Below are positions 48,271-63,978 of a DNA stretch of 64,000 nucleotides, in pieces (position 1 is the first letter of the stretch; every line of letters starts with the position of its first letter). The translations under genes were made by a program, and so were the position numbers. This stretch comes from Candidatus Eiseniibacteriota bacterium (GTDB taxonomy: Bacteria; Orphanbacterota; Orphanbacteria; Orphanbacterales; Orphanbacteraceae). Under the pieces are notes generated by a model that saw only the letters and a list, made by a program, of their open reading frames with translations, had not been told where the DNA came from and ran no database searches. Location: assembly GCA_029262235.1 (NCBI GenBank), contig JAJCZU010000004.1:771330-835329 (forward strand), written 5' to 3'.

Positions 48271-48630
48271 GAGCTTCCTTTTGTCGGGAACAGGGGGGAG
48301 GGGCTCGATCCATTCGAGTTCGTATATAATAGTAAGGGCTGCCCGGGGGATCAAGGCGGCGCCGGTGATTGGACCGAAGCGGGGAACGATTTGACGTGGC
48401 TCCCGATTCTCCGTATCCTGAATCTATAACGATTCTGTGAGCAACGCTCCGACCGACGATCGCCTAACGTGATGAACCATGGCGGCTTCGGCGACAGGGT
48501 CCCTCTGGAAACGGGCGGGCCTCCCGTGTTTGGAAAGGAGCGATGCGGAACCGGCTGATCAACGCGATCGGTCCGGCTGTTTCGCGTTCGCCTTTTCCTG
48601 GCTCACACCCCTCGGGGAAAAGGCGATGCC

Positions 48631-49926
48631 ATGCTTTCCTTCGAAGATGCCATCAAAAGTACTTTGCAAGCCGTGCAGGCTGTCGAAACCGAAGCGATGC
48701 CGCTTCTGGGCGCCCAGGGACGCGTGCTGCGCGCGCCGGTGACCGCCGATCGCGATCTGCCGCCGTTCGACCGGAGCGAGCGTGACGGTTTTGCCGTGCG
48801 CGCCGAAGACTGCGCGAATGGAAAAGCGACCCTGCCCGTTCACGCGCGCACGATTTACGCGGGCGACGAGCCGGGCGCCGCGATCGAACCGGGGACGGCC
48901 ATCCGCATCATGACGGGGGCCCCGCTTCCCGAAGGCGCGAACGTGGCGGTTCCGGTCGAGAAGACGATCGAGACGGGCGCGGGTGAGGCGGGCGAGGTGG
49001 CCGGCGCGGATGCCGGCGTTCGCCCGCGGGTGGTCATCGACTATCCCGCGATCAAGCCCGGGCTTCATGTGCATCCGCGCGGCTCCGATGCGCGCGCCGG
49101 CGCACTGCTGCTCGATACGGGCACCGTGCTCGGCCCGTCCGAAATCGCCGCGGCGGCCTCGGTGGGCGCCGGTACCGTGACAGTTTCCCGCCGCATTCGC
49201 GTCTCCGCGCTTTCTACAGGCGACGAACTCGTAGCGATCGAGGACGCGCCCGGCCCCGCGGCCATTCGTGACTGCAACGGGCCCGTGATTCTCGCGATGG
49301 CGTCCGCGCATCCGTGGATTCACGCGATCGGGTCGTATCGCGCGCCCGACGATCGTGGCGTGTTGCGCGAAACCATCGCGCGCGCGCTCGAGAGCGCCGA
49401 CGTGCTCGTACTTTCCGGCGGCGTGAGCATGGGAACGAAGGACTTCGTGCCCGGCGTGCTGGCGGAGCTCGGCGTAGAACAGATCTTTCACAAGACCGCC
49501 ATTCGCCCCGGGAAGCCGCTCTGGCTCGGCGCCGCGCCGAACGGGGCGCACGTTTTCGGCCTCCCGGGAAATCCGGTCGCCGTGCAGGTCACGTTTCGCG
49601 AAATCGTAATGCCGGCGCTTCGCAAACTGGCGGGCATGGCGCGCACGAGCGGCCCCGAATATGTGCTCCCTCTGGCGATACCCGTTTCGAAATCGATTCC
49701 GTTCCGTCAGTTCGTCCCCGCCCGCGTCGTGCCGGGCAATCCGGCGGGCGAACCGCACAAATCGCCGCTTTGCTCGTGCTCGCACGCGCTGCCGCTCGAC
49801 CATCGCGGGTCGGGCGACTTCGTTTCCGCCGCGCGCGCCGAGGGCGTGATCGTGCTGCCCGAAGGGCCGCACGAGTTCAGGGCGGGCGACCCGGTCATGT
49901 TTCACCCCTGGGGACCATCATGCTAG
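48631..49926 (+). CDS. moeA: Molybdopterin molybdenumtransferase
   Basis: MoeA-family similarity throughout ('GPVILAMASA', 'LSGGVSMGTKDF', 'GLPGNPVA'). Confidence 0.8.
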   Translation: MLSFEDAIKSTLQAVQAVETEAMPLLGAQGRVLRAPVTADRDLPPFDRSERDGFAVRAEDCANGKATLPVHARTIYAGDEPGAAIEPGTAIRIMTGAPLPEGANVAVPVEKTIETGAGEAGEVAGADAGVRPRVVIDYPAIKPGLHVHPRGSDARAGALLLDTGTVLGPSEIAAAASVGAGTVTVSRRIRVSALSTGDELVAIEDAPGPAAIRDCNGPVILAMASAHPWIHAIGSYRAPDDRGVLRETIARALESADVLVLSGGVSMGTKDFVPGVLAELGVEQIFHKTAIRPGKPLWLGAAPNGAHVFGLPGNPVAVQVTFREIVMPALRKLAGMARTSGPEYVLPLAIPVSKSIPFRQFVPARVVPGNPAGEPHKSPLCSCSHALPLDHRGSGDFVSAARAEGVIVLPEGPHEFRAGDPVMFHPWGPSC

Positions 49927-50894
49927 TCGACAAACACGGCCGTCTCGCGGATCGCCTTCGCATCGGGCTCACGGATCGTTGCGACCTGCGCTGCACCTAC
50001 TGCATGCCGCTTCACGGCAATGTGTTCGCCCCGAAATCGGATCTCCTGACGAACGAAGAAATCGTGCGCGTGGCCCGCTTTCTCGTAAAGCGCACCGGTC
50101 TCACGCGGATTCGGCTGACGGGCGGCGAACCGCTGCTGCACCCGGGGCTCGAAGAACTCGTGCGCGATCTCGCGACGCTCGATATCGAAGATCTCGCCCT
50201 TACGACGAACGCGCAGCTGCTCGCGGATCACGCGGAGGGTCTTGCGCGGGCGGGGCTGCGCCGCGTGAACATCTCGCTCGACACGCTGCAGCCCGCGCGG
50301 TTTGATGCGATGGCGCGCGTCGGGAAACTGGAGCGCACGCTCGAGGGGATCGACGCCGCGATCGAAGCCGGTCTCGGCCCCGTGAAGCTGAACTGTGTCG
50401 TGATGCGCGGCGACAATGACGACGAAGTGGGCGATCTCGTACGCTATGCTCTCGATCGCGACCTCGAACTCCGCTTCCTGGAGCTCATGTCGATCGGTGA
50501 AGCGGCCGCGTTTCATTCTGAGAAGTACGTGACGAGCGAAGACACGAGGGCGCGGCTCGCGCGCGAATTCACGATTGAAGAGCGGCCGTTCGAAGCAGGC
50601 GAAACGGCGCACGTGTTCGGCATTCGAAACGGCACGCGCAGAGGGAGCGTCGGTTTCATTTCGCCCGTCAGCAAGCCGTTCTGCACCTCGTGCCGCAGGC
50701 TTCGGCTGTCGGGGACGGGCGTGCTGCGCGGTTGTCTCATGAACGCCGCGGGCCCGGACGTGCGGGCGATTATTCGATCGGGCGACGCCGACTGGGAAGA
50801 ACAGCTCGCGCGCACGGTGCTGACCGCGATCAATCAGAAGCCGTGGCTCAGTACGATGGAAACGCAGGTCGCGATGCACAGGCTGGGCGGCTGA
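49920..50894 (+). CDS. moaA: GTP 3',8-cyclase (radical SAM)
   Basis: 'CDLRCTYCMP' radical-SAM CxxxCxxC; the C-terminal second cluster 'CTSCRRLRLSGTGVLRGC'. ATG at 49920 overlaps the moeA end by 7 nt; the upstream 200 aa of the track ORF are junk. Confidence 0.8.
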   Translation: MLVDKHGRLADRLRIGLTDRCDLRCTYCMPLHGNVFAPKSDLLTNEEIVRVARFLVKRTGLTRIRLTGGEPLLHPGLEELVRDLATLDIEDLALTTNAQLLADHAEGLARAGLRRVNISLDTLQPARFDAMARVGKLERTLEGIDAAIEAGLGPVKLNCVVMRGDNDDEVGDLVRYALDRDLELRFLELMSIGEAAAFHSEKYVTSEDTRARLAREFTIEERPFEAGETAHVFGIRNGTRRGSVGFISPVSKPFCTSCRRLRLSGTGVLRGCLMNAAGPDVRAIIRSGDADWEEQLARTVLTAINQKPWLSTMETQVAMHRLGG

Positions 50895-50968
50895 CGAACG
50901 GCAGGGCCGGGCATCGCCGCGCCGGCAACCAGAAGACAGCATACGCAGAACGGGATGGAGGCTGCGCT

Positions 50969-51445
50969 TTGGAAGAGAAACGACTGTCGCACATCGGGGA
51001 TGATGAACGGGCGCGCATGGTCGACGTGTCGCCGAAGTCCGAAACCGTGCGTATGGCGCGGGCCGAAGCGATCGTGCGCGTCGGCGCGGAAGTCGCCGCG
51101 CTCCTTCGCTCGACGGGTTCCGTGGCGAAGGGGAACGTCATCGAGACGGCGCGTATCGCCGGGATCATGGCGGCGAAGAGAACGGCCGAACTCGTGCCGA
51201 TGTGCCATCCGCTGATGCTCGATCATATTGCGATCGACGGCAATCTCGACGGCGACCGCCTGACCATGCAGTGCGAAGTGCGATGCACCGGACGCACCGG
51301 CGTCGAGATGGAAGCGATGCTCGGCGCGTCCGTCGCCGCGCTCACGGTGTACGACATGTGCAAGTCGGCGTCGAAGGGAATCGAAATCGAAGGCGTTCGT
51401 CTTCTCAATAAAGAAGGCGGCAAGAGCGGGAAGTGGGAACGATGA
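50969..51445 (+). CDS. moaC: Cyclic pyranopterin monophosphate synthase
   Basis: 'LSHIGDDERARMVDVSPK', 'IAGIMAAKRT..LVPMCHPL' and 'TGRTGVEMEAMLGASVAALTVYDMCK' match MoaC throughout. Probable TTG start at 50969; no in-frame ATG is upstream of the conserved N-terminus. Confidence 0.75.
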   Translation: MEEKRLSHIGDDERARMVDVSPKSETVRMARAEAIVRVGAEVAALLRSTGSVAKGNVIETARIAGIMAAKRTAELVPMCHPLMLDHIAIDGNLDGDRLTMQCEVRCTGRTGVEMEAMLGASVAALTVYDMCKSASKGIEIEGVRLLNKEGGKSGKWER

Positions 51446-51891
51446 GTAACGCACGCGGAACGGTGCTCGCCGTCCAGATTTCGCCCGGCGGCATTCCGAA
51501 GATGCCGGTCGAAGAGGCGGTCGTCGGTCGCATGGGAATCGAGGGCGACGGACGCGATCACGCGAAGCACTGGAAAGAGGAGCGCGCGATCTCGATTCAG
51601 GATCTCGAGCTCATCGAACAGATCCGGGGCGACGGTTACGATGTGGCCCCCGGCGTTATGGGCGAGAATCTAACGGTGAAAGACCTGCACGTACAGACGC
51701 TGATCCCCGGCACCAAGCTTCACTTTTCGGGCGGGCTCGTGCTCGAACTGACCGGTCCGCGCAAACCGTGTTTCGTGCTCGACACGATCGACGAGAAGCT
51801 GAAAGATGACGTGATCAATCGAATCGGATACATGGCACGCGTGGTGCAGGAACATACGATCCGTCCTGGCGAAACGGTGTGGGCGGAGTGA
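51442..51891 (+). CDS. MOSC-domain protein
   Basis: 150 aa; the C-terminal 'PCFVLDTI..RIGYMARVVQEHTIRPGETV' is MOSC-like. ATGA overlap with moaC. Confidence 0.6.
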   Translation: MSNARGTVLAVQISPGGIPKMPVEEAVVGRMGIEGDGRDHAKHWKEERAISIQDLELIEQIRGDGYDVAPGVMGENLTVKDLHVQTLIPGTKLHFSGGLVLELTGPRKPCFVLDTIDEKLKDDVINRIGYMARVVQEHTIRPGETVWAE

Positions 51892-51953
51892 CACGAGATC
51901 GGGCCGGCCGTGCGGATCAAGAGGGCGAATCCGGTCGCAGAACAGAACGCTCG

Positions 51954-52532
51954 ATGCCCGTTCCCGCTTACCCGCATACGGCGGCGCTTCTCGTCGGCGG
52001 AAAGAGCACGCGCATGGGGCAGGCGAAAGTCGGCCTCCGGTTCGAAGACGGCAGCACGCTCGGCGAACGGATCGTCGCCACACTGCAGGCGATGACGCGT
52101 GAAGTCGTTCTCGTCGGCACATGCGAAGATCTTCCCGCGCCGCTTCGTGCACTTCCCGCGATTCCCGATCTGCGCACCGGCGAAGGTCCGCTCGCAGGAT
52201 GGGAGGCGCTACTCGCTTCGGGCCGCGACAGCGAATACCTGGTGCTCTCGTGCGACCAGCCCGTTCTCGATGCCGCACCGCTGGTTCCGCTTCTCGCCGT
52301 ACCCTCCGCGCCCGCATTTCTTCTCGTGAACGAACCGATGCCCGCGCGCCTCAGCGCCGCGCTTCTGCCGCAGGTGAGCGCCGCGCTCGACAAGGGCAAC
52401 CGCTCGCTGCGCGATCTCATGGTCACGATTCCCTCTGCGCACTTCGCCCAGTTCCCGTCCGGCGCACGGCCCATTCCGAATCTGAACACGCCCGCAGACT
52501 GGGCGGCGTTTCAGAAAACGTTGGCGCGATGA
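51954..52532 (+). CDS. mobA: Molybdenum cofactor guanylyltransferase
   Basis: 'AALLVGGKSTRMGQAK' is the MobA N-terminal nucleotide-binding motif. ATG at 51954. Confidence 0.7.
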   Translation: MPVPAYPHTAALLVGGKSTRMGQAKVGLRFEDGSTLGERIVATLQAMTREVVLVGTCEDLPAPLRALPAIPDLRTGEGPLAGWEALLASGRDSEYLVLSCDQPVLDAAPLVPLLAVPSAPAFLLVNEPMPARLSAALLPQVSAALDKGNRSLRDLMVTIPSAHFAQFPSGARPIPNLNTPADWAAFQKTLAR

Positions 52533-53962
52533 CGAACGCGAACGACCGCCAGAAGCTCAGTGATCTCTTTCGTGAGCACACCGGCGCCGCCCCGGAAGAC
52601 GTAACCTCGCTCCGGGGCGACGGGTCGGACCGCCGGCTCTATCGGCTGGCCGGCCCCGTTTCGATGATCGGCGTCGCGCACGAGAACAGGCGCGAAAACG
52701 ACTCGTTCGTTGCGCTCAGCCGCCATTTCCGCGACCGGTCGCTCCCCGTGCCCGCGATTTACGTTTATGACGCGGACGCGCACATCTATCTCGAAGAGGA
52801 CCTCGGCGACACCACACTTGCAGACTGGCTCGCCCGCGCGAAGGGCGCCGACGACGAGCGCCGGAAACTGATCGACAGCGTTGTCGCCTGGCTTCCGCGC
52901 TTTCAGATCGAAGGGTCGGAAGGGCTCACGGACGACGTCTTCTCGTCGCACGCTCGCTTTCTGCCCAAAACGGCCGAAGCGGACCTCGACTACTTTCGCG
53001 ACTCGTTTCTCGGGCTGCTCTATGACGGCGAATGGGACGCGGCGAAGCTCGATCGCGACTGCCGGGAACTCGTCCGGCTTCTTGCCGACTCGGACTCCGA
53101 TTTCTTCCTGTATCGCGACTTCCAGGCCCGCAACATGATGGTGCGGAACGGCGCGCTCTCGTTCATCGACTATCAGTCGGGGCGCCGCGGTCCGCTCGCG
53201 TACGATCTCGCCTCGTTCCTCTATTCTTCGACGACGCATTTTTCGACGCGCGAGCGAAACGAGCGTATCGATCTCTATGTGCGCGAAGCGAGCCACCTCA
53301 CGAAATTCGACGAAACCCGTTTTCGCGAAAGCTTTCCCCTGGTTGCCCTCATCCGCAATCTGCAGACGCTCGGCGCGTACGGGAACCTCGGAGTGCGCAA
53401 AGGGAAGGCGCTTTTCCTGCGGAACGTGCCCGCGAAGGTGAACACGATCGTCGGACTCTTCCGTGAGGCCGGTCTTCGTGATACGTTTCCGGCGATCTAC
53501 GACATTCTGGCGCGGATCGGGCGCTCGCCGCGCAAGGCGCTGAAGGGGATGCACATGACTGACGAGATGCTCGTCGAAATCCACAGTTTCTCGTATCACA
53601 AATCCGGCATCCCGCGCGACGAGCGGGGGCACGGAGGCGGGTTCGTGTTCGACTGCCGCTTTCTGCCGAACCCGGGGCGTGAGGAAGGCTACGACACGCT
53701 CGACGGACGCGATACGGAAGTGCGCGTCTATCTCGAGAAGCGAAGCGAGGTCGAGGCGTTCTGGGTGCATGTGCGCAGCATCGTCGAAGAAGCGGTGCGC
53801 GCGTACGAGAAGCGCGGCTTCCAGTCGCTCTCGATCGCGTTCGGCTGCACGGGCGGGCAGCATCGCAGCGTCTACTTCGCCGAGCGCCTGTTCGCCCATC
53901 TCTCGCGCGAGGGAAAGATGTGTCGCCTGCGCCATGACGATCTGCAGGAGGACGCGGATTGA
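52529..53962 (+). CDS. Fusion protein: N-terminal aminoglycoside-phosphotransferase-like sugar kinase (AmgK-like anomeric MurNAc/GlcNAc kinase) plus a C-terminal RapZ (YvcJ/YhbJ) C-terminal-domain homolog
   Basis: APH-like kinase motifs ('LYRDFQARNMMV', 'FIDYQSG'). The C-terminal 'FVFDCRFLPNPGRE...SIAFGCTGGQHRSVYFAERL' matches the RapZ C-terminal domain (GCTGGxHRSV). ATGA overlap with mobA; the upstream 136 aa of the track ORF are junk. Confidence 0.6.
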   Translation: MTNANDRQKLSDLFREHTGAAPEDVTSLRGDGSDRRLYRLAGPVSMIGVAHENRRENDSFVALSRHFRDRSLPVPAIYVYDADAHIYLEEDLGDTTLADWLARAKGADDERRKLIDSVVAWLPRFQIEGSEGLTDDVFSSHARFLPKTAEADLDYFRDSFLGLLYDGEWDAAKLDRDCRELVRLLADSDSDFFLYRDFQARNMMVRNGALSFIDYQSGRRGPLAYDLASFLYSSTTHFSTRERNERIDLYVREASHLTKFDETRFRESFPLVALIRNLQTLGAYGNLGVRKGKALFLRNVPAKVNTIVGLFREAGLRDTFPAIYDILARIGRSPRKALKGMHMTDEMLVEIHSFSYHKSGIPRDERGHGGGFVFDCRFLPNPGREEGYDTLDGRDTEVRVYLEKRSEVEAFWVHVRSIVEEAVRAYEKRGFQSLSIAFGCTGGQHRSVYFAERLFAHLSREGKMCRLRHDDLQEDAD

Positions 53963-54747
53963 CCGGCATGGTCCTCGCTGCCGGCCTCGGAAAGCGCCTG
54001 CGCCCCGTTACCATCCGTACGCCGAAAGCGCTGATTCCGGTGCGCGGGAAGCCGTTACTCCAGTGGGCGCTCGACAAGCTCGGGCGCGTCGGTGCCGACC
54101 CCATCTACGTCAACGTGCATCATCATGCGCCGTTCGTGCGGACGTTTCTTTCCCAGATTGAAACGGCGGAAGAGATTCGCGTGGTCGAAGAGGATCCGGT
54201 TCTCGAAACGGGGGGCGGCATTCGTAATGTCGCGCGAATGATGGAAACGGATGCGGCGGGCGGAAAGACTGCAGGTGGCTCCCGCGCCGGGAGCGACACC
54301 TCGGGCACGCGCGACTCCCTGCTGATTCACAACGCCGACGTCCTCTCGTCGCTCCCGCTCGATCGTTTTCAGGATGCGTTCGAATCCGGAAAGTACGACG
54401 CGTATCTTGCCGTGCAGACGCGCAAGACGAGCCGGCCGATCGCGATCGATTCCGAGGGATTGCTTTCCGGGCGTTTCGGTGAAGAGCCGGTCCGGCCGGC
54501 CGATTCTCTGACGCCCGTCGGCTACAGCGGGATTCTGGCGATCACGCACGCCACGGCGCTGGCGCTCCCGGGCGAAGGATCGTTTCCCTTGATCGACTCT
54601 CTGCTCGCACTCATTCAGGAGGGCGCGCGCGTAGGAACGTATCCGATGGACGGCGCGTACTGGACCGACGTCGGCACGATGAAACGCTGGACGCAGGTCG
54701 AGCACGATCTCGCGAACGGCGTCATCGCACCGGAAGCGCTTGCGTGA
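53959..54747 (+). CDS. Sugar-1-phosphate nucleotidyltransferase (MurU-like)
   Basis: 'MVLAAGLGKRLRP' is the G-x-G-x-R-L NTP-transferase motif. The track start is a TTG at 53959 overlapping the kinase stop; the ATG at 53968 is an alternative. Confidence 0.65.
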   Translation: MTGMVLAAGLGKRLRPVTIRTPKALIPVRGKPLLQWALDKLGRVGADPIYVNVHHHAPFVRTFLSQIETAEEIRVVEEDPVLETGGGIRNVARMMETDAAGGKTAGGSRAGSDTSGTRDSLLIHNADVLSSLPLDRFQDAFESGKYDAYLAVQTRKTSRPIAIDSEGLLSGRFGEEPVRPADSLTPVGYSGILAITHATALALPGEGSFPLIDSLLALIQEGARVGTYPMDGAYWTDVGTMKRWTQVEHDLANGVIAPEALA

Positions 54748-54807: not shown

Positions 54808-55635
54808 CTACTTCTTCGCGATCAGATACGCAATCCACGCCACCGCGTCGTCGCCCTTCTTCACCGGGCGGAAGACGCCGTTCCCGTCGCCGTCCTTGTC
54901 GGTGCCTTCCCAGAAGACGGTCACTTCGCTGTAGCCCGTTTCGTAAAGCAGGTCTTTCACTTCGACGAGATTCCAGAGCCGCCAGTCGTACGTGAACGCT
55001 TTCTTCATCTTGCTTCCGTCGGGGAACTTGAAGTGGATGTAGCAGCGATAGTCGCCGGTGACCGGGTCGTAGTAGTCCTGATCCCAGACGTACGTGAAAT
55101 CGTCGTATTCCCACTCTTCGAGCTGCGGGATCATGGCTTCGGGGCCACCGTAAATGTCGAGGTAGAGAAACCCGTCGTCGTTCAACGTTTCGTGAACGGC
55201 GCGGAAGTATTCTGCGAGCGTCTCTCTCTTCTTGAACGCGAAGTACGAGAAATTGTTGGCGCAGATGATGTCGAACTTTTCGTTACCCGGATGCAGCACG
55301 TCCCCTTCCATCAGCTTGACGCGCAGGGCGGCTTCGCCGAGCGGGGGGAGATGCTGCTGACGTCCCCATGCGAGCGGAACGGGGTCGAGGTCGATGCCGA
55401 GCGCGCGATTCTCGGGCGACGTTCGTACGAAACTGCACGCGACCGCGCCGGTGCCGCAGAAGTCCTCACGCAGAGTGCGCGGTTCCTTGTTGAACATCTT
55501 GTTGTACGTTCTGCGGACGAACTTCACTTCCGAGTCGGGATCCTGCACGGACTTGATATAGAGGTCGTACCGATCCGCATTTTTCGAAGCTTTGATCTTT
55601 GAAGTCTTGTGCTTCGCAGCCTTGATCTTTCCCAT
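54808..55635 (-). CDS. Class I SAM-dependent methyltransferase
   Basis: 'EDFCGTGAVA' (motif I) and 'DIICANN' (motif II). ATG at 55635; the upstream part of the track ORF is unlikely to be coding. Confidence 0.6.
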   Translation of the reverse strand: MGKIKAAKHKTSKIKASKNADRYDLYIKSVQDPDSEVKFVRRTYNKMFNKEPRTLREDFCGTGAVACSFVRTSPENRALGIDLDPVPLAWGRQQHLPPLGEAALRVKLMEGDVLHPGNEKFDIICANNFSYFAFKKRETLAEYFRAVHETLNDDGFLYLDIYGGPEAMIPQLEEWEYDDFTYVWDQDYYDPVTGDYRCYIHFKFPDGSKMKKAFTYDWRLWNLVEVKDLLYETGYSEVTVFWEGTDKDGDGNGVFRPVKKGDDAVAWIAYLIAKK

Positions 55636-55940
55636 CACGAGTCCCCTCACGAATCGAAGGTTGCATGGCCCGGCGGGCGCCGGCTGGTGAATGAACGGAG
55701 AATAGGACAGGACCGTTTTCGGGGGCAACAGGGAAAAGTCTTGGTGGGAGCAGAAAAACGGATACAATGTCGAGAGAAACTACCCGGCAGGAACGCAGCG
55801 ATCCATCCGTAAAGTTCCGGGGGCGGGGTTCGGTTTTCGCGTATAGGACGAATGACCCCCTCGGGCGACTATAAATGTGAACCGGAAGGGCAACGGCCCT
55901 GCAGATGGGCAAGGGCCCTACATTCGCGAATGGAGGAGAC

Positions 55941-57056
55941 ATGTCTCGCAATAGACTCCAGGTCGGGTTAGGCCTCCTGGCACTCGGATTCGGAGCGGCT
56001 CTTCTCCCCTTGTCCGCCCTGGCGCAGGACACCGAGGAGATGGGCTTCGACGAAGTGGAAGAACCGGCGCCGGCTGCGCATGCAAGCTGGACCGAGAACA
56101 TTCATATCTCAGGTCGTTTCGATCTGAACCTCGAGAAGTTCAGCCCCGGCGGCGATCCGGGCGGGACCGAACAGTTCCGCAACTATCATCACTTCCTGTT
56201 CGTGAAGGCTTCTCCTTATAAGGACATCAGCTTCTCGGCCGAGGTGCTCGACCAGTCGTACTACGAAATTCAATACACGCTCAGCCCGCGCGCCTCGCTC
56301 AAGGCGGGCAAGATCTGGGTGCCGTTCGGTCTGACCCCGTTCCATCACTTCTACGGCGGCGTGCAGGGAGACCCGTTCACGGGCAAGCTCGTGCCGAACG
56401 TCTGGGCGGAACTGGGCTTTTCGATCGACTACCGCATTCTCCAGGGTGAGGGCGGCAGCTGGAACCTGCACGGCGATACATACGCCATCCGGGGCTTCGA
56501 CGGAGCGCCCGGCACGATTCTCGATCTCTCTTCGGGCGGAAGCGACGACGTGTTCGCCTACGGACAGCGGCTCACGCTGAGCATGCTTTCCTCAAAGGTC
56601 GTCGTGGCCGGCTCGGGGCTCTGGAACGAGTGGGGCCCCGAAGACAAAGAGGCGGTCGTGCTCTGGGGCGGCGATCTCACGGTCGGCTACGGGCTGATCG
56701 ACGTCGCGTTCCTGCGTGACCTTTCGTTTCGCGGAGCGTTTGCGCGCGCCGAGATCAGAGACCCGGCGATCAACGATCTCCGGTTCGACGAAGACAGCGA
56801 CTGGTACTGGAAATACGGCGATTTCGCCGAACTCTCGTACGGTCACTGGCGCCCGGGCGTCACGCTCAAGGCGCGCTTCGGCACGTACGTCGACTTCGGC
56901 GACATCATCACGCAGGAGGACATGCATTCGTTCAATCTCGCGGCGGTCCGCCAGGTCGGCCCGCTCAGCCTGGTTGCTCACTATTTCTGGGTGTTCGAAG
57001 AAGCGAACGAGATCGACAACGACTTCGTGCGTCTCTCGACCATCCTCGCGTTTTAG
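55941..57056 (+). CDS. Outer-membrane beta-barrel (porin-like) protein
   Basis: Signal peptide (MSRNRLQVGLGLLALGFGAALLPLSALAQD); amphipathic beta-strand pattern; C-terminal '...STILAF' with a terminal Phe, as in OMP signatures. Confidence 0.6.
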   Translation: MSRNRLQVGLGLLALGFGAALLPLSALAQDTEEMGFDEVEEPAPAAHASWTENIHISGRFDLNLEKFSPGGDPGGTEQFRNYHHFLFVKASPYKDISFSAEVLDQSYYEIQYTLSPRASLKAGKIWVPFGLTPFHHFYGGVQGDPFTGKLVPNVWAELGFSIDYRILQGEGGSWNLHGDTYAIRGFDGAPGTILDLSSGGSDDVFAYGQRLTLSMLSSKVVVAGSGLWNEWGPEDKEAVVLWGGDLTVGYGLIDVAFLRDLSFRGAFARAEIRDPAINDLRFDEDSDWYWKYGDFAELSYGHWRPGVTLKARFGTYVDFGDIITQEDMHSFNLAAVRQVGPLSLVAHYFWVFEEANEIDNDFVRLSTILAF

Positions 57057-57065
57057 GAGGCTCTG

Positions 57066-57689
57066 ATGCCGGTTCCAGTCAATCTGGTGGGAACAGGGTG
57101 GGGAACTCGTCTGAACGAGCTTTCCCTCACGATCAGGATCCTCTTTACGGCGACCCTGATGACGATGGGCACGGCCTATCTATTCGCGGTCACGAACGTG
57201 GCGCTCTCGGTCGGGCTGACCCCGGCCAAGGTCATCGAGCACTACTGGGGCACGCCCGCGACCCGCGCTTCCATGGAGGCCGACAAGGGCGAAGCGGTCG
57301 CTGCCGAGGAAGAGGAGATGAGCTTCGACGATCTCGAAATGGACGAAGCGGCGTCCGGACCGGTCGTAGCGATCCCGTCGTTCTCGAGCCTCGTGGCCGA
57401 AGGGCATTTTCACCTGTTCGGCTACTCGATGATCTTCTTCATCTGCGGTTTCATCGTCTCGTTTGCCGAGGCGAATCCCATATTCAAGCGCGTGCTCGTT
57501 CTTGCGCCGTTCGTCGGTTCCGTGTTCGACGTCTGGAGCATTTTCCTGACGCGCTTCATCGGTCCCTGGTTTTCCTGGATGGTCATGATGTCGGGCGCTC
57601 TGATGGCCTCATCGTTTCTGATCATCTTTGTCATCTCGATCAAGCAAATGTGGTTCACGAAGAGCCCGAAAGCAAAGGTAGCGGCATGA
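57066..57689 (+). CDS. Integral membrane protein of unknown function (about 4 TM segments, acidic loop)
   Basis: 207 aa with hydrophobic segments and a His pair (EGHFHLFGY). 9-nt gap after the OMP gene. Confidence 0.5.
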   Translation: MPVPVNLVGTGWGTRLNELSLTIRILFTATLMTMGTAYLFAVTNVALSVGLTPAKVIEHYWGTPATRASMEADKGEAVAAEEEEMSFDDLEMDEAASGPVVAIPSFSSLVAEGHFHLFGYSMIFFICGFIVSFAEANPIFKRVLVLAPFVGSVFDVWSIFLTRFIGPWFSWMVMMSGALMASSFLIIFVISIKQMWFTKSPKAKVAA

Positions 57690-58297
57690 ATTACGGAAGA
57701 TTTGGAAAGTTCCTGGTGCTTTGTGCGCTCCCCTTCGTACTCGTCGGCTTTTTTGCCCTGGTGGGTTTTCCGCAGCAGAGCTATGCGCAGTTTGCGGATG
57801 TCGTAACAGTCAAGGCGGCGCTGAAAGAGGCGCTTCAGGCCAACGGAGCGAAGTCACTCGTCAAGCGTGAGGTCGTGCCGACAGCCGAGCAGGCCGCGGA
57901 GATGGCGAAACTGTACGGAATCGAAGCCGGCAAGAAATACACGATGTACACAGGGCTCACGGCTGAGAAGAAGCCGGTGGGCACGGTCGTGATCGTCGAT
58001 GTGGCGGGCTATGAAGGGCCGCTTCAGATGATCATCTGCATCGAGCCCGATTCTGCCTCCGTTTACGACCTCGGCTTCACGATGTTCGCGGAAGAACGTG
58101 GCAAGCCCGCGAAGGAAGCCGGGTATCTCAAGCAGTATATCGGCGCCGACGTTTCCTGGAAGTACGCGCTCGGAAAGGACGTCGACGGCATTACGGGGGC
58201 GACCGGGACTTCGACGGCGGTTGCCGCCGCGGTCAAGATCGGCACCAGCGTTTATGACTATTTCGTGACGCGCGGAAATGGAGTCGTCGAGCCATGA
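57686..58297 (+). CDS. FMN-binding domain protein (NqrC/RnfG/NosR-type covalent flavinylation motif)
   Basis: Signal/TM N-terminus; 'DGITGATGTS' matches D-x-x-(S/T)-G-A-T flavinylation sites. ATGA overlap with the preceding gene. Confidence 0.65.
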   Translation: MNYGRFGKFLVLCALPFVLVGFFALVGFPQQSYAQFADVVTVKAALKEALQANGAKSLVKREVVPTAEQAAEMAKLYGIEAGKKYTMYTGLTAEKKPVGTVVIVDVAGYEGPLQMIICIEPDSASVYDLGFTMFAEERGKPAKEAGYLKQYIGADVSWKYALGKDVDGITGATGTSTAVAAAVKIGTSVYDYFVTRGNGVVEP

Positions 58298-58707
58298 TCA
58301 AGACGATGAGGAACCCGGTTAGAGGGCCTGCCACGCTGATCGCGTGTCTGCTGCTCTTCACGGGGTGCGGCACGTTTCATCCCCTCGAGAGGGGTGGGGA
58401 GGCCGACGGTCTGCCGACCGCGCCCGGGCTGAGCGAAGACGTGAGTTTTGCGAGCAACGTGAAGCCGATTCTTTCGCAGTGCGCGGTCTGTCATGGGAGC
58501 GGCGCGGGCGGATGGACCTACGGCGGCGGCGCGACCGCCTACGTCGAAGCGCGCACCGTTGTCGATCCCGGCGATCCTGCCGCGAGCCTGTTGCTCGCGA
58601 AGGCGTCGGGAGCAGTGAGCCACGGAGGCGGCGCGCCGCTTCCTTCAACCGGAACTAAATACGCGACCGTTCTTACGTGGATCGAAGACGGAGCACTCGA
58701 TAATTAG
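58294..58707 (+). CDS. Small monoheme c-type cytochrome lipoprotein
   Basis: Lipoprotein-like signal peptide (LLFTGC) and a single CxxCH (CAVCHG). ATGA overlap with the preceding gene. Confidence 0.55.
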   Translation: MIKTMRNPVRGPATLIACLLLFTGCGTFHPLERGGEADGLPTAPGLSEDVSFASNVKPILSQCAVCHGSGAGGWTYGGGATAYVEARTVVDPGDPAASLLLAKASGAVSHGGGAPLPSTGTKYATVLTWIEDGALDN

Positions 58708-58726
58708 TCGCAAAGGGAGGCGAGCG

Positions 58727-59800
58727 ATGTTTGTTTCAAAGAGAAGTCTGACCCTGGCGCTGACTCTGGGAATCTTCGCCATGGTGATGACGGCGTGTGA
58801 GAGAACCAAGATTACGCGGATCGTCGAGGAAGCTCCGGTGGGCGGCGAGTCGAACTGCTTCGAGTGTCACAGCGACGCGGCGACGTTCATCGTGGCTGCG
58901 GAACAGCAGTGGATGAACTCGGTGCACGCGAGCAGCCTGAATATCGATCGGGGAGCCAGCGCGTCGTGTGCGGGCTGTCACATCAGCGAAGGTTTCGTGC
59001 AGCGCGCAAGCGGCCTCGAAGTGACCGGCGAAGATAATGCGACGCCGATTCACTGCTTTACGTGTCACGCGCCGCATACGGAAGGCGATTTTTCGCTCCG
59101 GTGGACAGAGCCCGTGACGCTGCAGAACGGTGTAACGGCCGATATCGGGGCCGGCAACCTGTGCGCACAGTGTCACCAGGCACGCCGCGACGTGAACTCG
59201 TATGTCGGCACGATCGGCACCGAGACCGTCTCGATCACAAGCACGCACTGGGGGCCGCATCACGGCAACCAGGCCGACATGTTCATCGGTTCGAACGGCT
59301 ACGAATATGCTGGCTACACGTATCGTGGAGCGTCGCATCTATCCGCGGCGACCAACGGCTGCGTGAACTGCCACTTCGACGCCACGAGCAACAGCGTGGT
59401 CGGCGGGCACTCCTTTAACATGGCCTACACGCTGCGTGACGAAGGCGGAGCCGGCAGTGAAATCCTGAACACGGCTGCCTGTGAAGCGTGTCACTCGGAT
59501 GTGGACGACTTCGACATCAACGACATGCAGACGAACGTGAACGCGCTGATCGCGGAACTCGAAGAGCTGCTCGAAGACGCGGGTCTCTGGACGAACGGTC
59601 ATCCGAACGCGGGCGTCACGACTTCGGTCGATTCGGCGGGCGCGGTCTGGAATCTGCTGATGGCGGAAGAAGACAGAAGCCACGGCGTTCACAATGCGAA
59701 ATACACGGTCGATCTGCTGCAGTCTTCGATCGACTTCATGAAGGGCGAGCTGAAAGGCTCGGACAAGAACGCGGTCTACCAGCGTCACGCGATGCGGTAG
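58727..59800 (+). CDS. Hexaheme c-type cytochrome lipoprotein
   Basis: Lipoprotein-like signal peptide (LGIFAMVMTAC). Six CxxCH motifs: CFECH, CAGCH, CFTCH, CAQCH, CVNCH and CEACH. Confidence 0.7.
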   Translation: MFVSKRSLTLALTLGIFAMVMTACERTKITRIVEEAPVGGESNCFECHSDAATFIVAAEQQWMNSVHASSLNIDRGASASCAGCHISEGFVQRASGLEVTGEDNATPIHCFTCHAPHTEGDFSLRWTEPVTLQNGVTADIGAGNLCAQCHQARRDVNSYVGTIGTETVSITSTHWGPHHGNQADMFIGSNGYEYAGYTYRGASHLSAATNGCVNCHFDATSNSVVGGHSFNMAYTLRDEGGAGSEILNTAACEACHSDVDDFDINDMQTNVNALIAELEELLEDAGLWTNGHPNAGVTTSVDSAGAVWNLLMAEEDRSHGVHNAKYTVDLLQSSIDFMKGELKGSDKNAVYQRHAMR

Positions 59801-59819
59801 GGTTAGCGGCGGGACGCGC

Positions 59820-61160
59820 TCAGGCGTCTCGAGAATCGTACTCTGATTTCACGAGGGAGCGGGAAGGTCGAAACTTCCCGCTCTTCTCGTTTGGCAGCCG
59901 GTCCACCAGCTCGATCCGGAACGACACGCCCGGTCCGAACACTTCTTCCGCGCTCTTCTCGATCCGGCGCAGGTGCGCCCCGCTCGGCTTCTCCCACGCA
60001 ATCGCCCGCAGTACGATGCGGTCCGTCGCTTCCTGCGTCATCTGGTACTGGCGCATCCACGGATCTTCAGACAGCATCGGCACGGTCAGTTCGTACGGAT
60101 GCACCACGCGCCCGCCCGGCAGCGTGAAATAGTCGATCATGCGCCCCGTGACCCGGCGGATCGTGCGGTACGGCGCGCCGCAGGCACAGCGATCTTCCCC
60201 CTGCACCACGATGTCGTCGAGCCTGTATCGCAGGAACGGCATCGTGAACGAGTGAAGGGCCGTGCCGACCGCCTCGCCCTGCTCCCCCGGAGAAGCCGGC
60301 GCGCCGTCTTCGCGCAGCACTTCCAGAATCATGTTGTCGTCAATCACATGCATGTCGCCCGTGGCGGGACACTCGGCCGCGATCATGTTGAACTCGTGGC
60401 TGCCGTACGTCTGGCGAACGGGGGCCGCGAACCCTTCTGCAATCTGCTTTTTCATGAGCGTGGTCGCGACTTCGCCGCCGACCGAAACGAGGCGCACGGG
60501 AGGCGGAGGCGTTCCGGTCTCGATCAAGTGCTGCGCCACACGCGCGAGCGTCGAGGGAAAACCACCGATGACGTCGGCGCGCGCGGCATGAATCTGCTCT
60601 AGAAGATCTTCCGCTTCACGCAGCGTATTGATGCGGTGAGTTCGGTAGCGCCGGAGTGCGTGCCGGGCTGAACGCCACGTTCCCGCCGGCCCTTCCTGCT
60701 GCTCGGAAAAGAGGCCGATGACCACGAGGTTGTCGCCCGCCCGCATGCCGTGACGCCGCAGCTGGCGCGTGCGAAAAAGCGCGAGCAGGGTCTCTTCGCC
60801 CGGAGCGCGCCGAATCGTGAGCGGCTCGCCTGTCGAGCCGCTCGTTCTGTGTGAAATCAGGCCGTTCAACGAAGTGCCCGGCGGAACGAGGTCACCGGCG
60901 GCGCGCCCGGCGAGATCGGCACGCGTAACAAGCGGCAGCCGGTGCAGGTCGGCGGCACCGCGCACGTCGCGCACGTCGAGGCCGGCGCGGGCGAAATGTT
61001 CACGATAGAAGGGAATATGCCGAGCGGCGTGTTGCACGAGGGCGCGGAGTCTTCGGTCCCGAAACGCGTCGATCTTCTCACGGGTCTTGAGACCGCCCGC
61101 GAGAAGATCGACGGTGGATCGCAGCGTTTCGGTTCGGGGCAGCAGTGCGCGCAGGCTCAT
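59820..61160 (-). CDS. Phenylacetate-CoA ligase-like adenylate-forming enzyme (PaaK / CapK / F390-synthetase family)
   Basis: 'TSGSTGEPL' is the AMP-binding P-loop-like motif; PaaK-like length and C-terminal domain. Confidence 0.65.
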   Translation of the reverse strand: MSLRALLPRTETLRSTVDLLAGGLKTREKIDAFRDRRLRALVQHAARHIPFYREHFARAGLDVRDVRGAADLHRLPLVTRADLAGRAAGDLVPPGTSLNGLISHRTSGSTGEPLTIRRAPGEETLLALFRTRQLRRHGMRAGDNLVVIGLFSEQQEGPAGTWRSARHALRRYRTHRINTLREAEDLLEQIHAARADVIGGFPSTLARVAQHLIETGTPPPPVRLVSVGGEVATTLMKKQIAEGFAAPVRQTYGSHEFNMIAAECPATGDMHVIDDNMILEVLREDGAPASPGEQGEAVGTALHSFTMPFLRYRLDDIVVQGEDRCACGAPYRTIRRVTGRMIDYFTLPGGRVVHPYELTVPMLSEDPWMRQYQMTQEATDRIVLRAIAWEKPSGAHLRRIEKSAEEVFGPGVSFRIELVDRLPNEKSGKFRPSRSLVKSEYDSRDA

Positions 61161-61183: not shown

Positions 61184-62596
61184 CTAGCGGATCAGATGCA
61201 GTTTCCGGGTTTCGGCGGTCGCCCCGTCATACTCGAGGCGATAGAGATAGACCCCGCTGGCGGCATCGCGCCCCGCATTGTCGCGCCCGTCCCAGATCGT
61301 CGTATGCGTTCCCGCGCCTTCCGTGCCGGACACGAGCTGGCGCACCACGCGGCCCGACTGGCTGTAGATCGCGAGATTGACCGCGCCGGTCGCGGGGAGC
61401 GAGTAGCGAATGCTGGTCGTGGGATTAAACGGGTTCGGCACGTTCGGCAGCAGCTGCGCCTGCGTGGTCGAAAGCGGCGCACCGTCGGCAACGGAAGTCG
61501 CCGTCTGCAGCCGGATCAGGTAGAGCCCCGTCTGCCGGTCGCTCACGATGATCGTGCCCGACGGGAGATACGGATAGACCCCCCAGGCGCCGTCGTACAC
61601 ACCAGCCCCCGGCTGCGGGTGCGTATCCCAGAAGCCGAGTTCCACTTCGTTGTCGCGATCGCTGAAGTCGACCACGCGAAGACCGTTGCCGTAGTACGCG
61701 ATATACGCCGTGTCGCCCACCGTATGCACGTTATGGGCCGACGTCTCGAATCCGCCCACTTTGTAGCGCGACGTCTGATAGATGTTCTGGTAGTCGGTGA
61801 CGTTCCAGCAGCGAACCGCTCCGTTCGGCTGCTCGTCGGCCGTCACGAACGAGTCATGGCCCTTGAGCGGCGCGATGTGATGGCTCGACCTCCCGTAGTT
61901 GAACGTCGCGAGGTTCACGATGCTCGCCGGATTCGACGTATCGAGAATGCGAAACTCCTGCGCGTTGATGCACGCGACGTACGCCGTATCGTTCTCGACC
62001 CAGAGATCGTGAATGTACTGCGTGTTCCACGTCCCCACCTGAACCGGAGCGATCGGATTGCTGAGGTCCACCATGCGAAACCCCTGGTTCGCGTTCGTGC
62101 CGCAGAGATACGCCATTGAAGAGGTGGTGTCGATGTAGATGTTGTGCGCGGTGGAGAAGTTGCTGCCGAGCCAGTTCGTGACCACGAACGGCGCTTCGGG
62201 ATCCGACATGTCGATGATCTGCATCCCGTGGCCGGTGCCTTCGCTCACGACGTAGGCGTAATGGCCCAGCGTCTTCACGTCGTGCCACCCCGACCCGACG
62301 AGTCCCGGGAGGAACGATACGAACGCCGGGTTCAGCGGATCCGTCACGTTATAGAAGATCGTTCCCGTGTTGTACGTCACGAGCGCGTATTCGTTTCCGT
62401 TCGGCGCCACGTATCCCCAGCAGTCCTGATACCCGTTCGGGTTCGACGGGTAGTCGTTCACGTTGGCGAGAAGGACCGTATTGCAGTGCACGGAATCCTC
62501 CGCGGCGAACGCGGTTCCGCAAAGCAGGGTGCAGAGCAGCGTGCAGAGCACGCCGACGATCATACCAGGACGCATGCGATTGTCTCCTTTGTTCAA
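61184..62596 (-). CDS. LVIVD-repeat beta-propeller protein with a T9SS C-terminal sorting domain
   Basis: Signal peptide; repeated 'YAYV...GL.I.D.S.P' LVIVD-like units; C-terminus '...SGVYLYRLEYDGATAETRKLHLIR'. Confidence 0.6.
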   Translation of the reverse strand: MNKGDNRMRPGMIVGVLCTLLCTLLCGTAFAAEDSVHCNTVLLANVNDYPSNPNGYQDCWGYVAPNGNEYALVTYNTGTIFYNVTDPLNPAFVSFLPGLVGSGWHDVKTLGHYAYVVSEGTGHGMQIIDMSDPEAPFVVTNWLGSNFSTAHNIYIDTTSSMAYLCGTNANQGFRMVDLSNPIAPVQVGTWNTQYIHDLWVENDTAYVACINAQEFRILDTSNPASIVNLATFNYGRSSHHIAPLKGHDSFVTADEQPNGAVRCWNVTDYQNIYQTSRYKVGGFETSAHNVHTVGDTAYIAYYGNGLRVVDFSDRDNEVELGFWDTHPQPGAGVYDGAWGVYPYLPSGTIIVSDRQTGLYLIRLQTATSVADGAPLSTTQAQLLPNVPNPFNPTTSIRYSLPATGAVNLAIYSQSGRVVRQLVSGTEGAGTHTTIWDGRDNAGRDAASGVYLYRLEYDGATAETRKLHLIR

Positions 62597-62616: not shown

Positions 62617-63978
62617 TCAGCGGATCAGATTCAGTTTTCGTGTACGAATTTCATTGCCGGCGTGCAGCGAATAAAAGTACGTGCCGCTCGCGACTTCGCG
62701 CCCGTTCGCGTCCGTGCCGTCCCAGACGGCCGTGTGCTCGCCGGATGATTCATGCCCCTGCGCGAGCTGGCGCACGAGGCGGCCCGACAGATCGAAGACG
62801 GCCAGATCGACGAACGCCGGCTCTTCGAGCGCGAAGCGAATGCGCGTCGTGGGGTTGAACGGATTCGGTTCGTTCGGCATCAGCCTCGTCTGAAACGCGA
62901 CAGGAAGGTCGCCCGACTCGACGCCCGTCGCCGTCGCCGGATCCCAGCGCACGAGGAACAACCCCTTCTGCATGTCCGAAAGCACGATCGTACCCGACGA
63001 AAGGAACGGGTAAACGCCCCAGTTGCCGGTGTACGTACCCGGGACATCGCCGAGCGGCGACGTGTCGTACCACGCGGTCAGAAACGAGTTCGGCGGGTCG
63101 GTCATGTCGATGATCCGCAGACCCTCCGTGTAGTAGGACACGTAGCAGATGCTGTCTTTCATGATCGCGTTGTGCGCGGAGGTGAGGCCGGCCTTCTTGT
63201 ACTGGTCGACCTGCACGATGTTCTGGAAGTCGGAGATGTCCCAGACGCGCACCGGGCCCCGCACGGCTTCGTCGCTCGTGACCAGGTAGTCGTGGTTCGG
63301 GTGAACCCAGGCGTTGTGATTCGCCGCGCTCGCGTACGTATGCGTGGCGAGCACGGAAACGCTCGCCGGATTCGAGACATCGAGAATGTGAAAGCCGCCG
63401 AAACTGATCGTGGACGCGTACGCGGTGTCATTCTCGACGTAGAGATCGTGCACGTAGTGTGTGCCCCATGCGCCGAGGAACGACGGGCTCGTCGGCGTCG
63501 AGATATCGAGAATGACCATGCCCGACCCTGTGCCGACGGCGTAGAGCCGCGCGGCCGCCACGTCGACGAAGAGATTGTGCGAGTTCCCCACCGTGGCGTT
63601 GTACGTCGCGACGAGAACCGGATTGTCCGGGCTTGAAACGTCGATGATCTGAATCCCGCCGCCCCCCTCGGTGCCGACGTAGATGTAATCCTGATACGAC
63701 TTGATGTCGCGCCAGCCGTTATTGGGGCCGTTGATGAACTTGACCAGAACCGGATTGGCGGGGTCGGTCACGCGATAGAATGAAGTGCCCGTAAAATGGC
63801 CGATGACAGCGTATTCATCGCCGTTCTTCTCGTAGCCCCATACGTCGGAGTAGCTCTCGGCGTAATCCATCGTGACGGAAAGCAGTGTCACGTCGCAGAC
63901 CAGGCTGTCCGAGGCCTGCGTGGCGGCGGGCAGTGTAAGCATCACAGCGAACATCGTCGCGATAACCAGGGGTTTCAT
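62617..63978 (-). CDS. LVIVD-repeat beta-propeller protein with a T9SS C-terminal sorting domain (tandem paralog)
   Basis: Same architecture as the upstream gene; C-terminus '...GTYFYSLHAGNEIRTRKLNLIR'. About 45% identical to it by eye. Confidence 0.6.
   Translation of the reverse strand: MKPLVIATMFAVMLTLPAATQASDSLVCDVTLLSVTMDYAESYSDVWGYEKNGDEYAVIGHFTGTSFYRVTDPANPVLVKFINGPNNGWRDIKSYQDYIYVGTEGGGGIQIIDVSSPDNPVLVATYNATVGNSHNLFVDVAAARLYAVGTGSGMVILDISTPTSPSFLGAWGTHYVHDLYVENDTAYASTISFGGFHILDVSNPASVSVLATHTYASAANHNAWVHPNHDYLVTSDEAVRGPVRVWDISDFQNIVQVDQYKKAGLTSAHNAIMKDSICYVSYYTEGLRIIDMTDPPNSFLTAWYDTSPLGDVPGTYTGNWGVYPFLSSGTIVLSDMQKGLFLVRWDPATATGVESGDLPVAFQTRLMPNEPNPFNPTTRIRFALEEPAFVDLAVFDLSGRLVRQLAQGHESSGEHTAVWDGTDANGREVASGTYFYSLHAGNEIRTRKLNLIR

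Follow-up and report, generated by a model that had tools for sequence, protein, structure and literature searches.

What does a compact run of five co-directional genes, encoding a beta-barrel, a small membrane protein, a flavoprotein and two c-type cytochromes, do for the bacterium that carries it? The run occupies positions 55941 to 59800 of a 64,000-nucleotide stretch of Candidatus Eiseniibacteriota DNA (assembly GCA_029262235.1, contig JAJCZU010000004.1, positions 771,330 to 835,329 of the forward strand), and this whole stretch is called the window in the following. A first-pass annotation, made from the letters alone, took the run for a candidate flavin-cytochrome electron conduit. We propose that the five genes, here called A to E, encode a chain for electron transfer outside the cytoplasm, with a conserved but unnamed core of four genes (A-B-C-D), to which an interchangeable haem lipoprotein is added as the terminal component; we give this proposal an even chance of being right. 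The features are listed below.

Gene A, 55941-57056, + strand: outer-membrane porin, 371 residues.
Gene B, 57066-57689, + strand: inner-membrane protein with four transmembrane (TM) helices, PF27139 (Aq_1264_TM), 207 residues.
Gene C, 57686-58297, + strand: secreted FMN_bind protein, 203 residues.
Gene D, 58294-58707, + strand: monohaem c-type cytochrome lipoprotein, 137 residues.
Gene E, 58727-59800, + strand: hexahaem c-type cytochrome lipoprotein, apparently of the OcwA/NrfA type, 357 residues.
Intergenic stretch 5' of A, 55768..55940, + strand: holds the ribosome-binding site of A (GGAGGAG), with a divergent methyltransferase gene on its far side.

The arrangement is not due to chance: the order A-B-C-D recurs in 21 further distinct loci, wherever the contig reaches. 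The comparison set was assembled from three loci that hold B homologues, from GTDB species genomes scanned with the B alignment and from three further look-ups, and the window proteins were searched against it by tblastn; identity is 34-65% for A and 41-71% for B. All carriers are metagenome-assembled genomes, and they are assigned to Rhodothermales, Rhodothermaceae, Rubricoccaceae, 'Bacteroidetes', Latescibacterota, Eisenbacteria and Gemmatimonadota; the four-gene core spans at least four phylum-level groups.

A third haem lipoprotein is present in every locus with enough flank, and its type is exchanged. In 12 loci it is a protein of about 400 residues with an EB_dh/DOMON-type domain (PF09459) and a CX3CH motif, whose gene precedes A in Gemmatimonadota, follows D in L023 and otherwise stands between A and B. 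Nine loci carry a lipoprotein with about nine haems (520-546 residues; eight CXXCH motifs plus one CX4CH), encoded next to A and mostly divergently; this protein is 25-28% identical to E, and its top match in the PDB is OcwA (E-value 6e-8). One locus, L007, has both proteins. The closest relative of the window module, L023 (B 71% and A 65% identical), has the EB_dh gene in exactly the slot after D that E fills in the window, and none of the 21 further loci with A-D has a gene of the E family. What is conserved is the set A-B-C-D, usually accompanied by ApbE and by a haem lipoprotein that varies; the hexahaem protein E is specific to the window's module among the loci compared. The combination of an FMN-binding protein, a multihaem cytochrome and a barrel, which the first-pass annotation had singled out, is therefore real but not unique to the window, as nine loci combine the core with an OcwA-like multihaem protein.

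The segments behind the lipid-bearing cysteine are alike across the three kinds of terminal lipoprotein (window 58727-58800; L004 8520-8623, - strand; L023 3500-3620; alignment A3). They read C-[DEST]-R-x-[IV]-T-x-[IV]-E in the E family, C-D-L-R-E-[IV]-V-E-[IV]-E in the nine-haem proteins and C-D-R-D-G... in the EB_dh proteins; the E-type motif is also present in the E homologues of the Mtr-like gene trios described below. The shared segment could direct lipoprotein sorting or act as a strand that docks on a barrel.

Further conserved flank partners were sought and rejected, for the neighbours vary from locus to locus. PhoD/sulfatase genes flank the module in two Rhodothermales loci. Genes for a sensor histidine kinase and a sigma-54-dependent response regulator adjoin it in L020 (4092-7438, Gemmatimonadota) and L005 (13085-16846), and the module may be under sigma-54 control in some lineages. 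An ISL3-family transposase splits D just upstream of ApbE in L003 (11479-12887, Latescibacterota), and in L005 (7591-8745) an IS1595-type gene separates A from the EB_dh gene.

In the window itself, all five open reading frames (ORFs) were recovered on the + strand as previously described. The start of A was placed at 55941 and not at 55905 because GGAGGAG stands just 5' of 55941. The stop codon of A (TAG) is followed by 9 nt that include AGGAGG and then by the ATG of B; the B/C and C/D junctions are both ATGA overlaps; and D and E are separated by a 19-nt spacer with GGGAGG inside, so that Shine-Dalgarno sequences (AGGAGG/GGAGG) precede A, B and E. The first-pass annotation had the 9-nt and ATGA couplings right and gave the D/E gap as 9 nt, which is too short; its proposal of a single operon agrees with the operon-like layout (one strand, short gaps or overlaps) and with the A-B-C-D order kept elsewhere. 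The stop codon of a convergent gene lies 19 nt beyond the 3' end of E. No ORF of the whole window other than D and E bears a CXXCH motif, and the GC content at third codon positions (GC3) of E is 0.77, against 0.73-0.80 for its neighbours; the 19-nt junction and the similar GC3 suggest that E is integrated rather than freshly inserted. A scan of 55500-60100 returned no sigma-70-type promoter, the promoter types of the Fibrobacteres-Chlorobi-Bacteroidetes (FCB) group being outside its reach. Inspection by eye found no convincing -24/-12 element upstream of A, terminator-like sites around the module are at background level with none in the D/E gap, and the Rfam scan placed no riboswitch next to the module. 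A 399-residue ORF with a GTG start (57098-58297, + strand) runs in the frame of C and covers nearly all of B; it is spurious, because the homologue alignment conserves only its last 203 codons (from the ATG at 57686).

The flavoprotein C is the best-defined member in terms of its cofactor motif. It matches Pfam FMN_bind (PF04205) with 32.7 bits (cutoff 22, E-value 1.2e-7), and residues 167-176, DGITGATGTS, fit the flavinylation pattern D-x-x-[ST]-G-A-[TS] with an acceptor Thr. A172, T173 and S176 are invariant in 16 homologues, and Thr173 (codon 58202-58204) is the predicted attachment site of covalent flavin mononucleotide (FMN). The N-terminus is a hydrophobic signal with an SYA/Q cleavage site (A-x-A/Q type) that is kept across the aligned homologues; judged by this signal peptide, C is extracytosolic, and the earlier description of a periplasmic protein with a covalent-flavinylation motif holds. 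Among NCBIfam models C stays far below the cutoffs of RnfG (34.9 bits against 102) and NqrC (16.6 bits against 352), and it matches no PDB sequence. The flavin transferase ApbE is encoded directly 3' of D in nine homologous loci and is missing from the available flank in eight, the window counted among them; one ApbE of the sister loci bears a twin-arginine translocation (Tat) signal, RRSFLK, and would for this reason be extracytosolic.

The membrane protein B has a model with four TM helices (predicted local distance difference test score, pLDDT, 81), and its His pair, H114 and H116 (H-x-H), is invariant in 36 homologues; both features had been noticed before. Y38, D155, M180 and S183 are invariant as well, and the invariant residues lie about 10 residues below the periplasmic helix ends. 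B was assigned to PF27139 by the precomputed Pfam tag on a database protein of 100% identity (P0121) and on all 38 homologues; our own Pfam and NCBIfam searches gave no match at an E-value of 1 or below, the Pfam library used lacking the PF27139 model. The NosY-, NapH- or NrfD-like identity that the first-pass annotation had raised for 57066..57689 found no match in these searches. The B profile matches no PDB sequence, and the model has no specific structural relative. An MsrQ-like, PepSY-like or DUF4405 cytochrome was also considered and rejected for B, which belongs to none of these Pfam families and lacks the six TM helices and four central His residues.

The relatives of B tie it to D. 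A profile search against 1.84 billion representatives returned a superfamily of 889 clusters (50% identity) at an E-value of 0.001 or below, 294 of them at 1e-10 or below. Among the top 149 representatives, 98 are full-length (at least 180 residues), and 64 of these carry a CXXCH motif in the periplasmic loop between TM1 and TM2; all 64 retain the H-x-H at the start of TM2, as in ...CTYCH...SHIHLFG. These loops bear weak Pfam tags for Haem_bd, PSCyt1 or Cytochrome_CBB3, and the hidden Markov model of the D family matches them weakly in the 149-sequence set (best E-value 2e-6). The B subfamily of the window has an acidic TM1-TM2 loop with no haem motif, and the haem protein D is encoded two genes downstream. 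We read D as the putative split-off counterpart of the loop haem domain, and this Rosetta-stone relationship, in which a domain fused in relatives of B resembles the separate protein D, argues for a functional tie between B and D. Two Planctomycete-like superfamily members (P0300 and P0365, 576-598 residues) have two CXXCH domains each, the first in the TM1-TM2 loop and the second beyond extra TM helices, in a C-terminal extension, and P0259 is fused to an SPW-repeat membrane domain.

D itself has a lipobox with Cys25 and CAVCH from residue 63. C25, C63, C66, H67 and H110 are invariant in 14 homologues, which agrees with the CxxCH lipoprotein reported at first pass. H110 lies in HGGG and is the likely distal ligand; because this second His is invariant and no Met is, the haem of D is probably bis-His.

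The barrel A has a signal peptide, a C-terminal Phe, no Cys and no haem motif. Its model is a 16-strand OprP-like porin with OprP, DcaP and chitoporin as the best structural matches; the A profile matches no PDB sequence. The mature protein is acidic (isoelectric point, pI, 4.6; 50 D+E against 25 K+R), and residues 127-155 are strongly conserved (VPFG..PFHH.YGG.QGDPF.G..PNVW). A 16-strand barrel of the OprP type is too small to sheathe a multihaem cytochrome, and on this model A cannot be an MtrB-like sheath. The outer-membrane barrel with a terminal Phe that had been annotated is thus confirmed; a porin-cytochrome conduit of the MtrCAB or PCC style does not fit it.

The terminal protein E, annotated at first pass as a six-haem lipoprotein cytochrome, is exactly that by its motifs: the lipobox Cys24 and all six CXXCH motifs are invariant in 48 homologues. 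Five further His residues (H67, H117, H204, H228, H322) are invariant and two (H109, H178) nearly so; since these suffice in number, E may have six bis-His haems. The E profile (alignment A3, 48 members) finds OcwA (6i5b, E-value 4e-8), OmhA (6qvm, 9e-4) and NrfA (3ubr, 6e-3) in the PDB, the OcwA match spanning the C-terminal haem region and a helical bundle with S-x-GVHN, and E therefore appears related to the OcwA/NrfA-type multihaem cytochromes over the haem core and the C-terminal bundle. The fold relatives first suggested for E were NrfB, OmcA and DmsE; NCBIfam comparisons with NrfB, NrfH and DmsE gave E-values no better than 1e-3 and scores roughly a tenth of the cutoffs, and OcwA is the best profile match instead.

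The E family is large (1511 matches), and its closer members have a different home. All seven loci examined with E homologues of 50-64% identity (L001, L002, L024-L028) are trios of a decahaem cytochrome, a barrel and an E homologue: first a protein of 306-327 residues with 10 CXXCH motifs (a shorter form with seven in L026/L027), second a secreted beta-rich protein of about 520 residues with no Pfam domain, and third the E homologue. With the 520-residue protein as the predicted barrel, this is by its sequences the Mtr/PCC gene pattern (PCC, porin-cytochrome conduit). A is not detectably similar to these barrels (phmmer E-value above 0.02), the window contains no gene for a decahaem cytochrome or a 520-residue barrel, and tblastn of the window with the decahaem partners of E homologues gave nothing significant. 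We read the window genome as one in which a PCC-type outer cytochrome apparently sits in the terminal slot of the flavin module. Two of the trios (L024 871-5221 and L025 233-5747) adjoin divergent Rieske and cytochrome b genes, which hints at a bc-type complex as the electron source of the Mtr-like conduit in these organisms.

From these observations we propose the following path. Electrons from the membrane quinol pool would enter B at a site near the periplasmic face, possibly via a haem b or a metal, and pass to the FMN of C, attached to Thr173 by ApbE, which would accept two electrons and release them singly. The FMN would then reduce the haem of D, and D the six haems of E or, in other loci, the EB_dh protein or the protein with about nine haems. 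The terminal haem protein would deliver the electrons to an acceptor located at the outer membrane or immediately on its inner side. A would serve as the module's own channel: either it would let in a small soluble substrate or shuttle, or D would cap its periplasmic mouth in the manner of a split Cyc2; and E would have been recruited from an Mtr-like decahaem-barrel-hexahaem trio. Haems with bis-His ligation are usually of low potential, and FMN is typically of low potential too. An outward, reductive flow is favoured, because D and E are apparently bis-His and because the terminal proteins are kin to OcwA and OmhA.

Several observations weigh against this proposal. First, a multihaem protein does not fit inside a 16-strand barrel, which leaves no established route for electrons across the outer membrane. 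Second, no kinship was detected between B and proteins whose cofactor or quinone chemistry is known, and the role of B is thus deduced from conserved residues and fusions only. Third, the terminal proteins, whether E, nine-haem or EB_dh, begin with C-(D/E)-R/L... after the lipid-bearing Cys, and in enterobacteria a start of this kind would be a signal for retention in the inner membrane. Fourth, adjacency of D and E was seen only once among the loci examined, and none of the 46 metagenome loci with E relatives carries A-D. Fifth, the 64-kb window has no genes for c-type cytochrome maturation and no apbE (tblastn with two ApbE queries), the transferase having to be encoded elsewhere, as the first-pass annotation expected; and the flanking genes of the annotated loci give no consistent hint of a substrate.

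A broader form of the proposal is that A-B-C-D with ApbE represents an unrecognised class of envelope-spanning redox system in the FCB group and Gemmatimonadota, combining quinol oxidation by B, the flavoprotein C, D docked on A and interchangeable ends. We offer this tentatively, as possible rather than probable. In such a system H114, H116, D155 and M180 of B would form a buried site, and a metal or a haem b with His/Met ligation may be bound there; D on A would amount to a split Cyc2 run reductively; and the ends may plug in via the C-(D/E)-R...V-E segment.

Among the alternatives, the one that survives best is a periplasmic reductase with its own uptake porin, which we consider rather unlikely. 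Here A would admit a small substrate and the terminal haem lipoprotein would reduce it inside the periplasm, with no electrons crossing the outer membrane; candidate substrates would be a ferric chelate, taken up for iron assimilation, or an oxidant to be detoxified, such as nitrite or hydroxylamine. The size and fold of A are those of substrate-specific diffusion porins (OprP, DcaP, chitoporin), its segment 127-155 is unusually conserved, and the acidic residue after the lipid Cys may hold the terminal proteins on the periplasmic side. E and the nine-haem protein fall in the OcwA/NrfA lineage, and OcwA reduces nitrite and hydroxylamine (PMC6703420); the 2021 survey of flavinylated systems (PMC8238504) also ties several of them to iron reduction and assimilation. 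The conserved His residues of E, however, appear sufficient for six bis-His haems, which leaves no obvious open catalytic site, the E family holds the position of the outer cytochrome in Mtr-like trios, and no transporter or iron gene consistently adjoins the module.

Inward flow is distinctly unlikely. The donor, for instance Fe(II), would be extracellular or periplasmic, with A and D acting as a split Cyc2 and C and B passing electrons into the membrane. Cyc2 has been modelled as a 16-strand OprP/OprO-like porin whose monohaem domain plugs the periplasmic mouth (PMC8406198), and A shares this structural template, is encoded in one operon with a monohaem cytochrome and, with its acidic mature form (pI 4.6), would favour cations. 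The likeness is one of barrel class together with a single c-type haem domain. Cyc2 is a fused protein, whereas here A, with no Cys and no N-terminal CXXCH domain, and D are separate; in D, a lipoprotein, the haem appears to be bis-His and its motif context is PSCyt1-like; and the module adds FMN and a multihaem protein. A low-potential FMN and low-potential bis-His haems, including that of D, would be a poor fit to Fe(II) oxidation, and the multihaem partners are similar to OcwA and OmhA, which are terminal reductases. The potential reported for Cyc2 is +208 mV (PMC8406198).

It is highly improbable that E is a mere neighbour brought in by rearrangement, the operon being A-B-C-D and E an orphan or the servant of a decahaem-barrel pair elsewhere: the seven trios out of seven, the zero of 21 A-D loci with an E-family gene and the zero of 46 E-relative loci with A-D speak for it, but E is on the same strand 19 nt after D, with its own Shine-Dalgarno sequence, a gap devoid of terminator-like sites and a similar GC3, the same slot holds EB_dh in the nearest relative L023, nine loci pair A-D with a distant (25-28% identical) OcwA-like multihaem lipoprotein, and the window lacks the decahaem and 520-residue barrel genes that E would otherwise serve.

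We return to the electron-transfer chain on a four-gene core and compare it with known systems. With the ApbE-flavinylated systems, as described in two surveys (PMC8238504, PMC11334425), it shares a secreted FMN_bind protein and a Thr site of the [S/T]GA[T/S] type; likewise ApbE is in the cluster (nine homologous loci), a small membrane protein lies beside the flavoprotein, and flavin and cytochrome modules appear interchangeable. The partners named there are NapH-, MsrQ-, PepSY-, DsbD- and NQR/RNF-like proteins and DUF4405, whereas the partner here is PF27139, and unlike the surveyed systems the module has its own outer-membrane porin and a monohaem c-type lipoprotein. The word 'porin' is absent from the main text of the 2021 survey (PMC8238504), and PF09459, EB_dh, Rhodothermus, Salinibacter and Gemmatimonas are absent from three of its supplementary files; the sections on transmembrane partners of the 2024 survey (PMC11334425) treat other partner classes only. 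A literature search returned nothing on Aq_1264 and no paper describing a module of an FMN-binding protein, a multihaem protein and a porin.

C shares the FMN_bind fold family and the covalent-FMN Thr motif with RnfG and NqrC; it is far below their cutoffs, as noted, no other Rnf/Nqr subunit gene is in the cluster, and A, B, D and E match no Rnf/Nqr family in Pfam or NCBIfam. Membership in nrf, nos, otr, Rnf or Nqr was rejected, the NCBIfam scores being far below the family cutoffs. A mapping onto nos, nrf or otr would have overturned the first-pass statement that no named system fits; it came out negative, and the statement stands.

With MtrCAB, MtoAB/PioAB and the Geobacter PCC the module has in common a lipoprotein multihaem component that would be the outer one (E, with Cys24 and six haem motifs), from a family that serves as the outer-lipoprotein cytochrome of a three-gene set. 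The barrels of these conduits are large (about 20-26 strands), and A is not; the periplasmic decahaem protein (MtrA/DmsE-like) that goes with the barrel is absent from the window. E and the nine-haem partner both match OcwA (6I5B), of a group that includes OmhA (6QVM) and the NrfA family, and would be distant relatives of it. OcwA and OmhA are cell-surface terminal reductases of Gram-positive thermophiles, and they have nine or eleven haems against six in E, which comes from a diderm and has low sequence similarity to them. OcwA of Thermincola has been described as a cell-surface terminal reductase with an NrfA-like haem core that binds FMN strongly, and it can reduce both nitrite and hydroxylamine (PMC6703420).

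The module is conserved and apparently undescribed. It would add PF27139 as a new family of membrane partners for flavinylated carriers, and flavinylation surveys leave many genomes with no assigned membrane partner. It would also be the first case that we found in which a flavinylated carrier has an outer-membrane porin and c-type cytochromes of its own in the same cluster; extracytoplasmic electron transfer by flavins and that by cytochromes have so far mostly been catalogued apart. The exchange of EB_dh, nine-haem and hexahaem proteins is a natural example of mix-and-match in electron conduits. The carriers found are all uncultured; their groups are common in sediments and soils, and the extracellular or periplasmic redox capacity of these groups is poorly known.

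Other features of the window were also recorded. A molybdenum cofactor (Moco) riboswitch lies at 48435-48556 (+ strand; Rfam RF01055, 66.6 bits) and is followed by a moeA-moaA-moaC-MOSC-mobA-like run at 48631-52532; no molybdoenzyme gene was identified near them. A link between the module and these genes, about 4-7 kb upstream, was rejected, because three unrelated genes intervene, one of them on the opposite strand, and because no Moco genes stand by the module in the other annotated loci. The ORF at 52121-53962 (+ strand) joins an APH-type kinase and a RapZ C-terminal domain (PapZ_C), an unusual-looking fusion; its true start is probably well inside the listed coordinates, and its stop overlaps the start of a nucleotidyl transferase gene at 53959-54747 (+ strand). 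Downstream of the module, 61184-62596 and 62617-63978 (both - strand) encode paralogous secreted LVIVD-repeat proteins with FlgD_ig or type IX secretion-like C-terminal domains, which is consistent with an organism of the FCB group.

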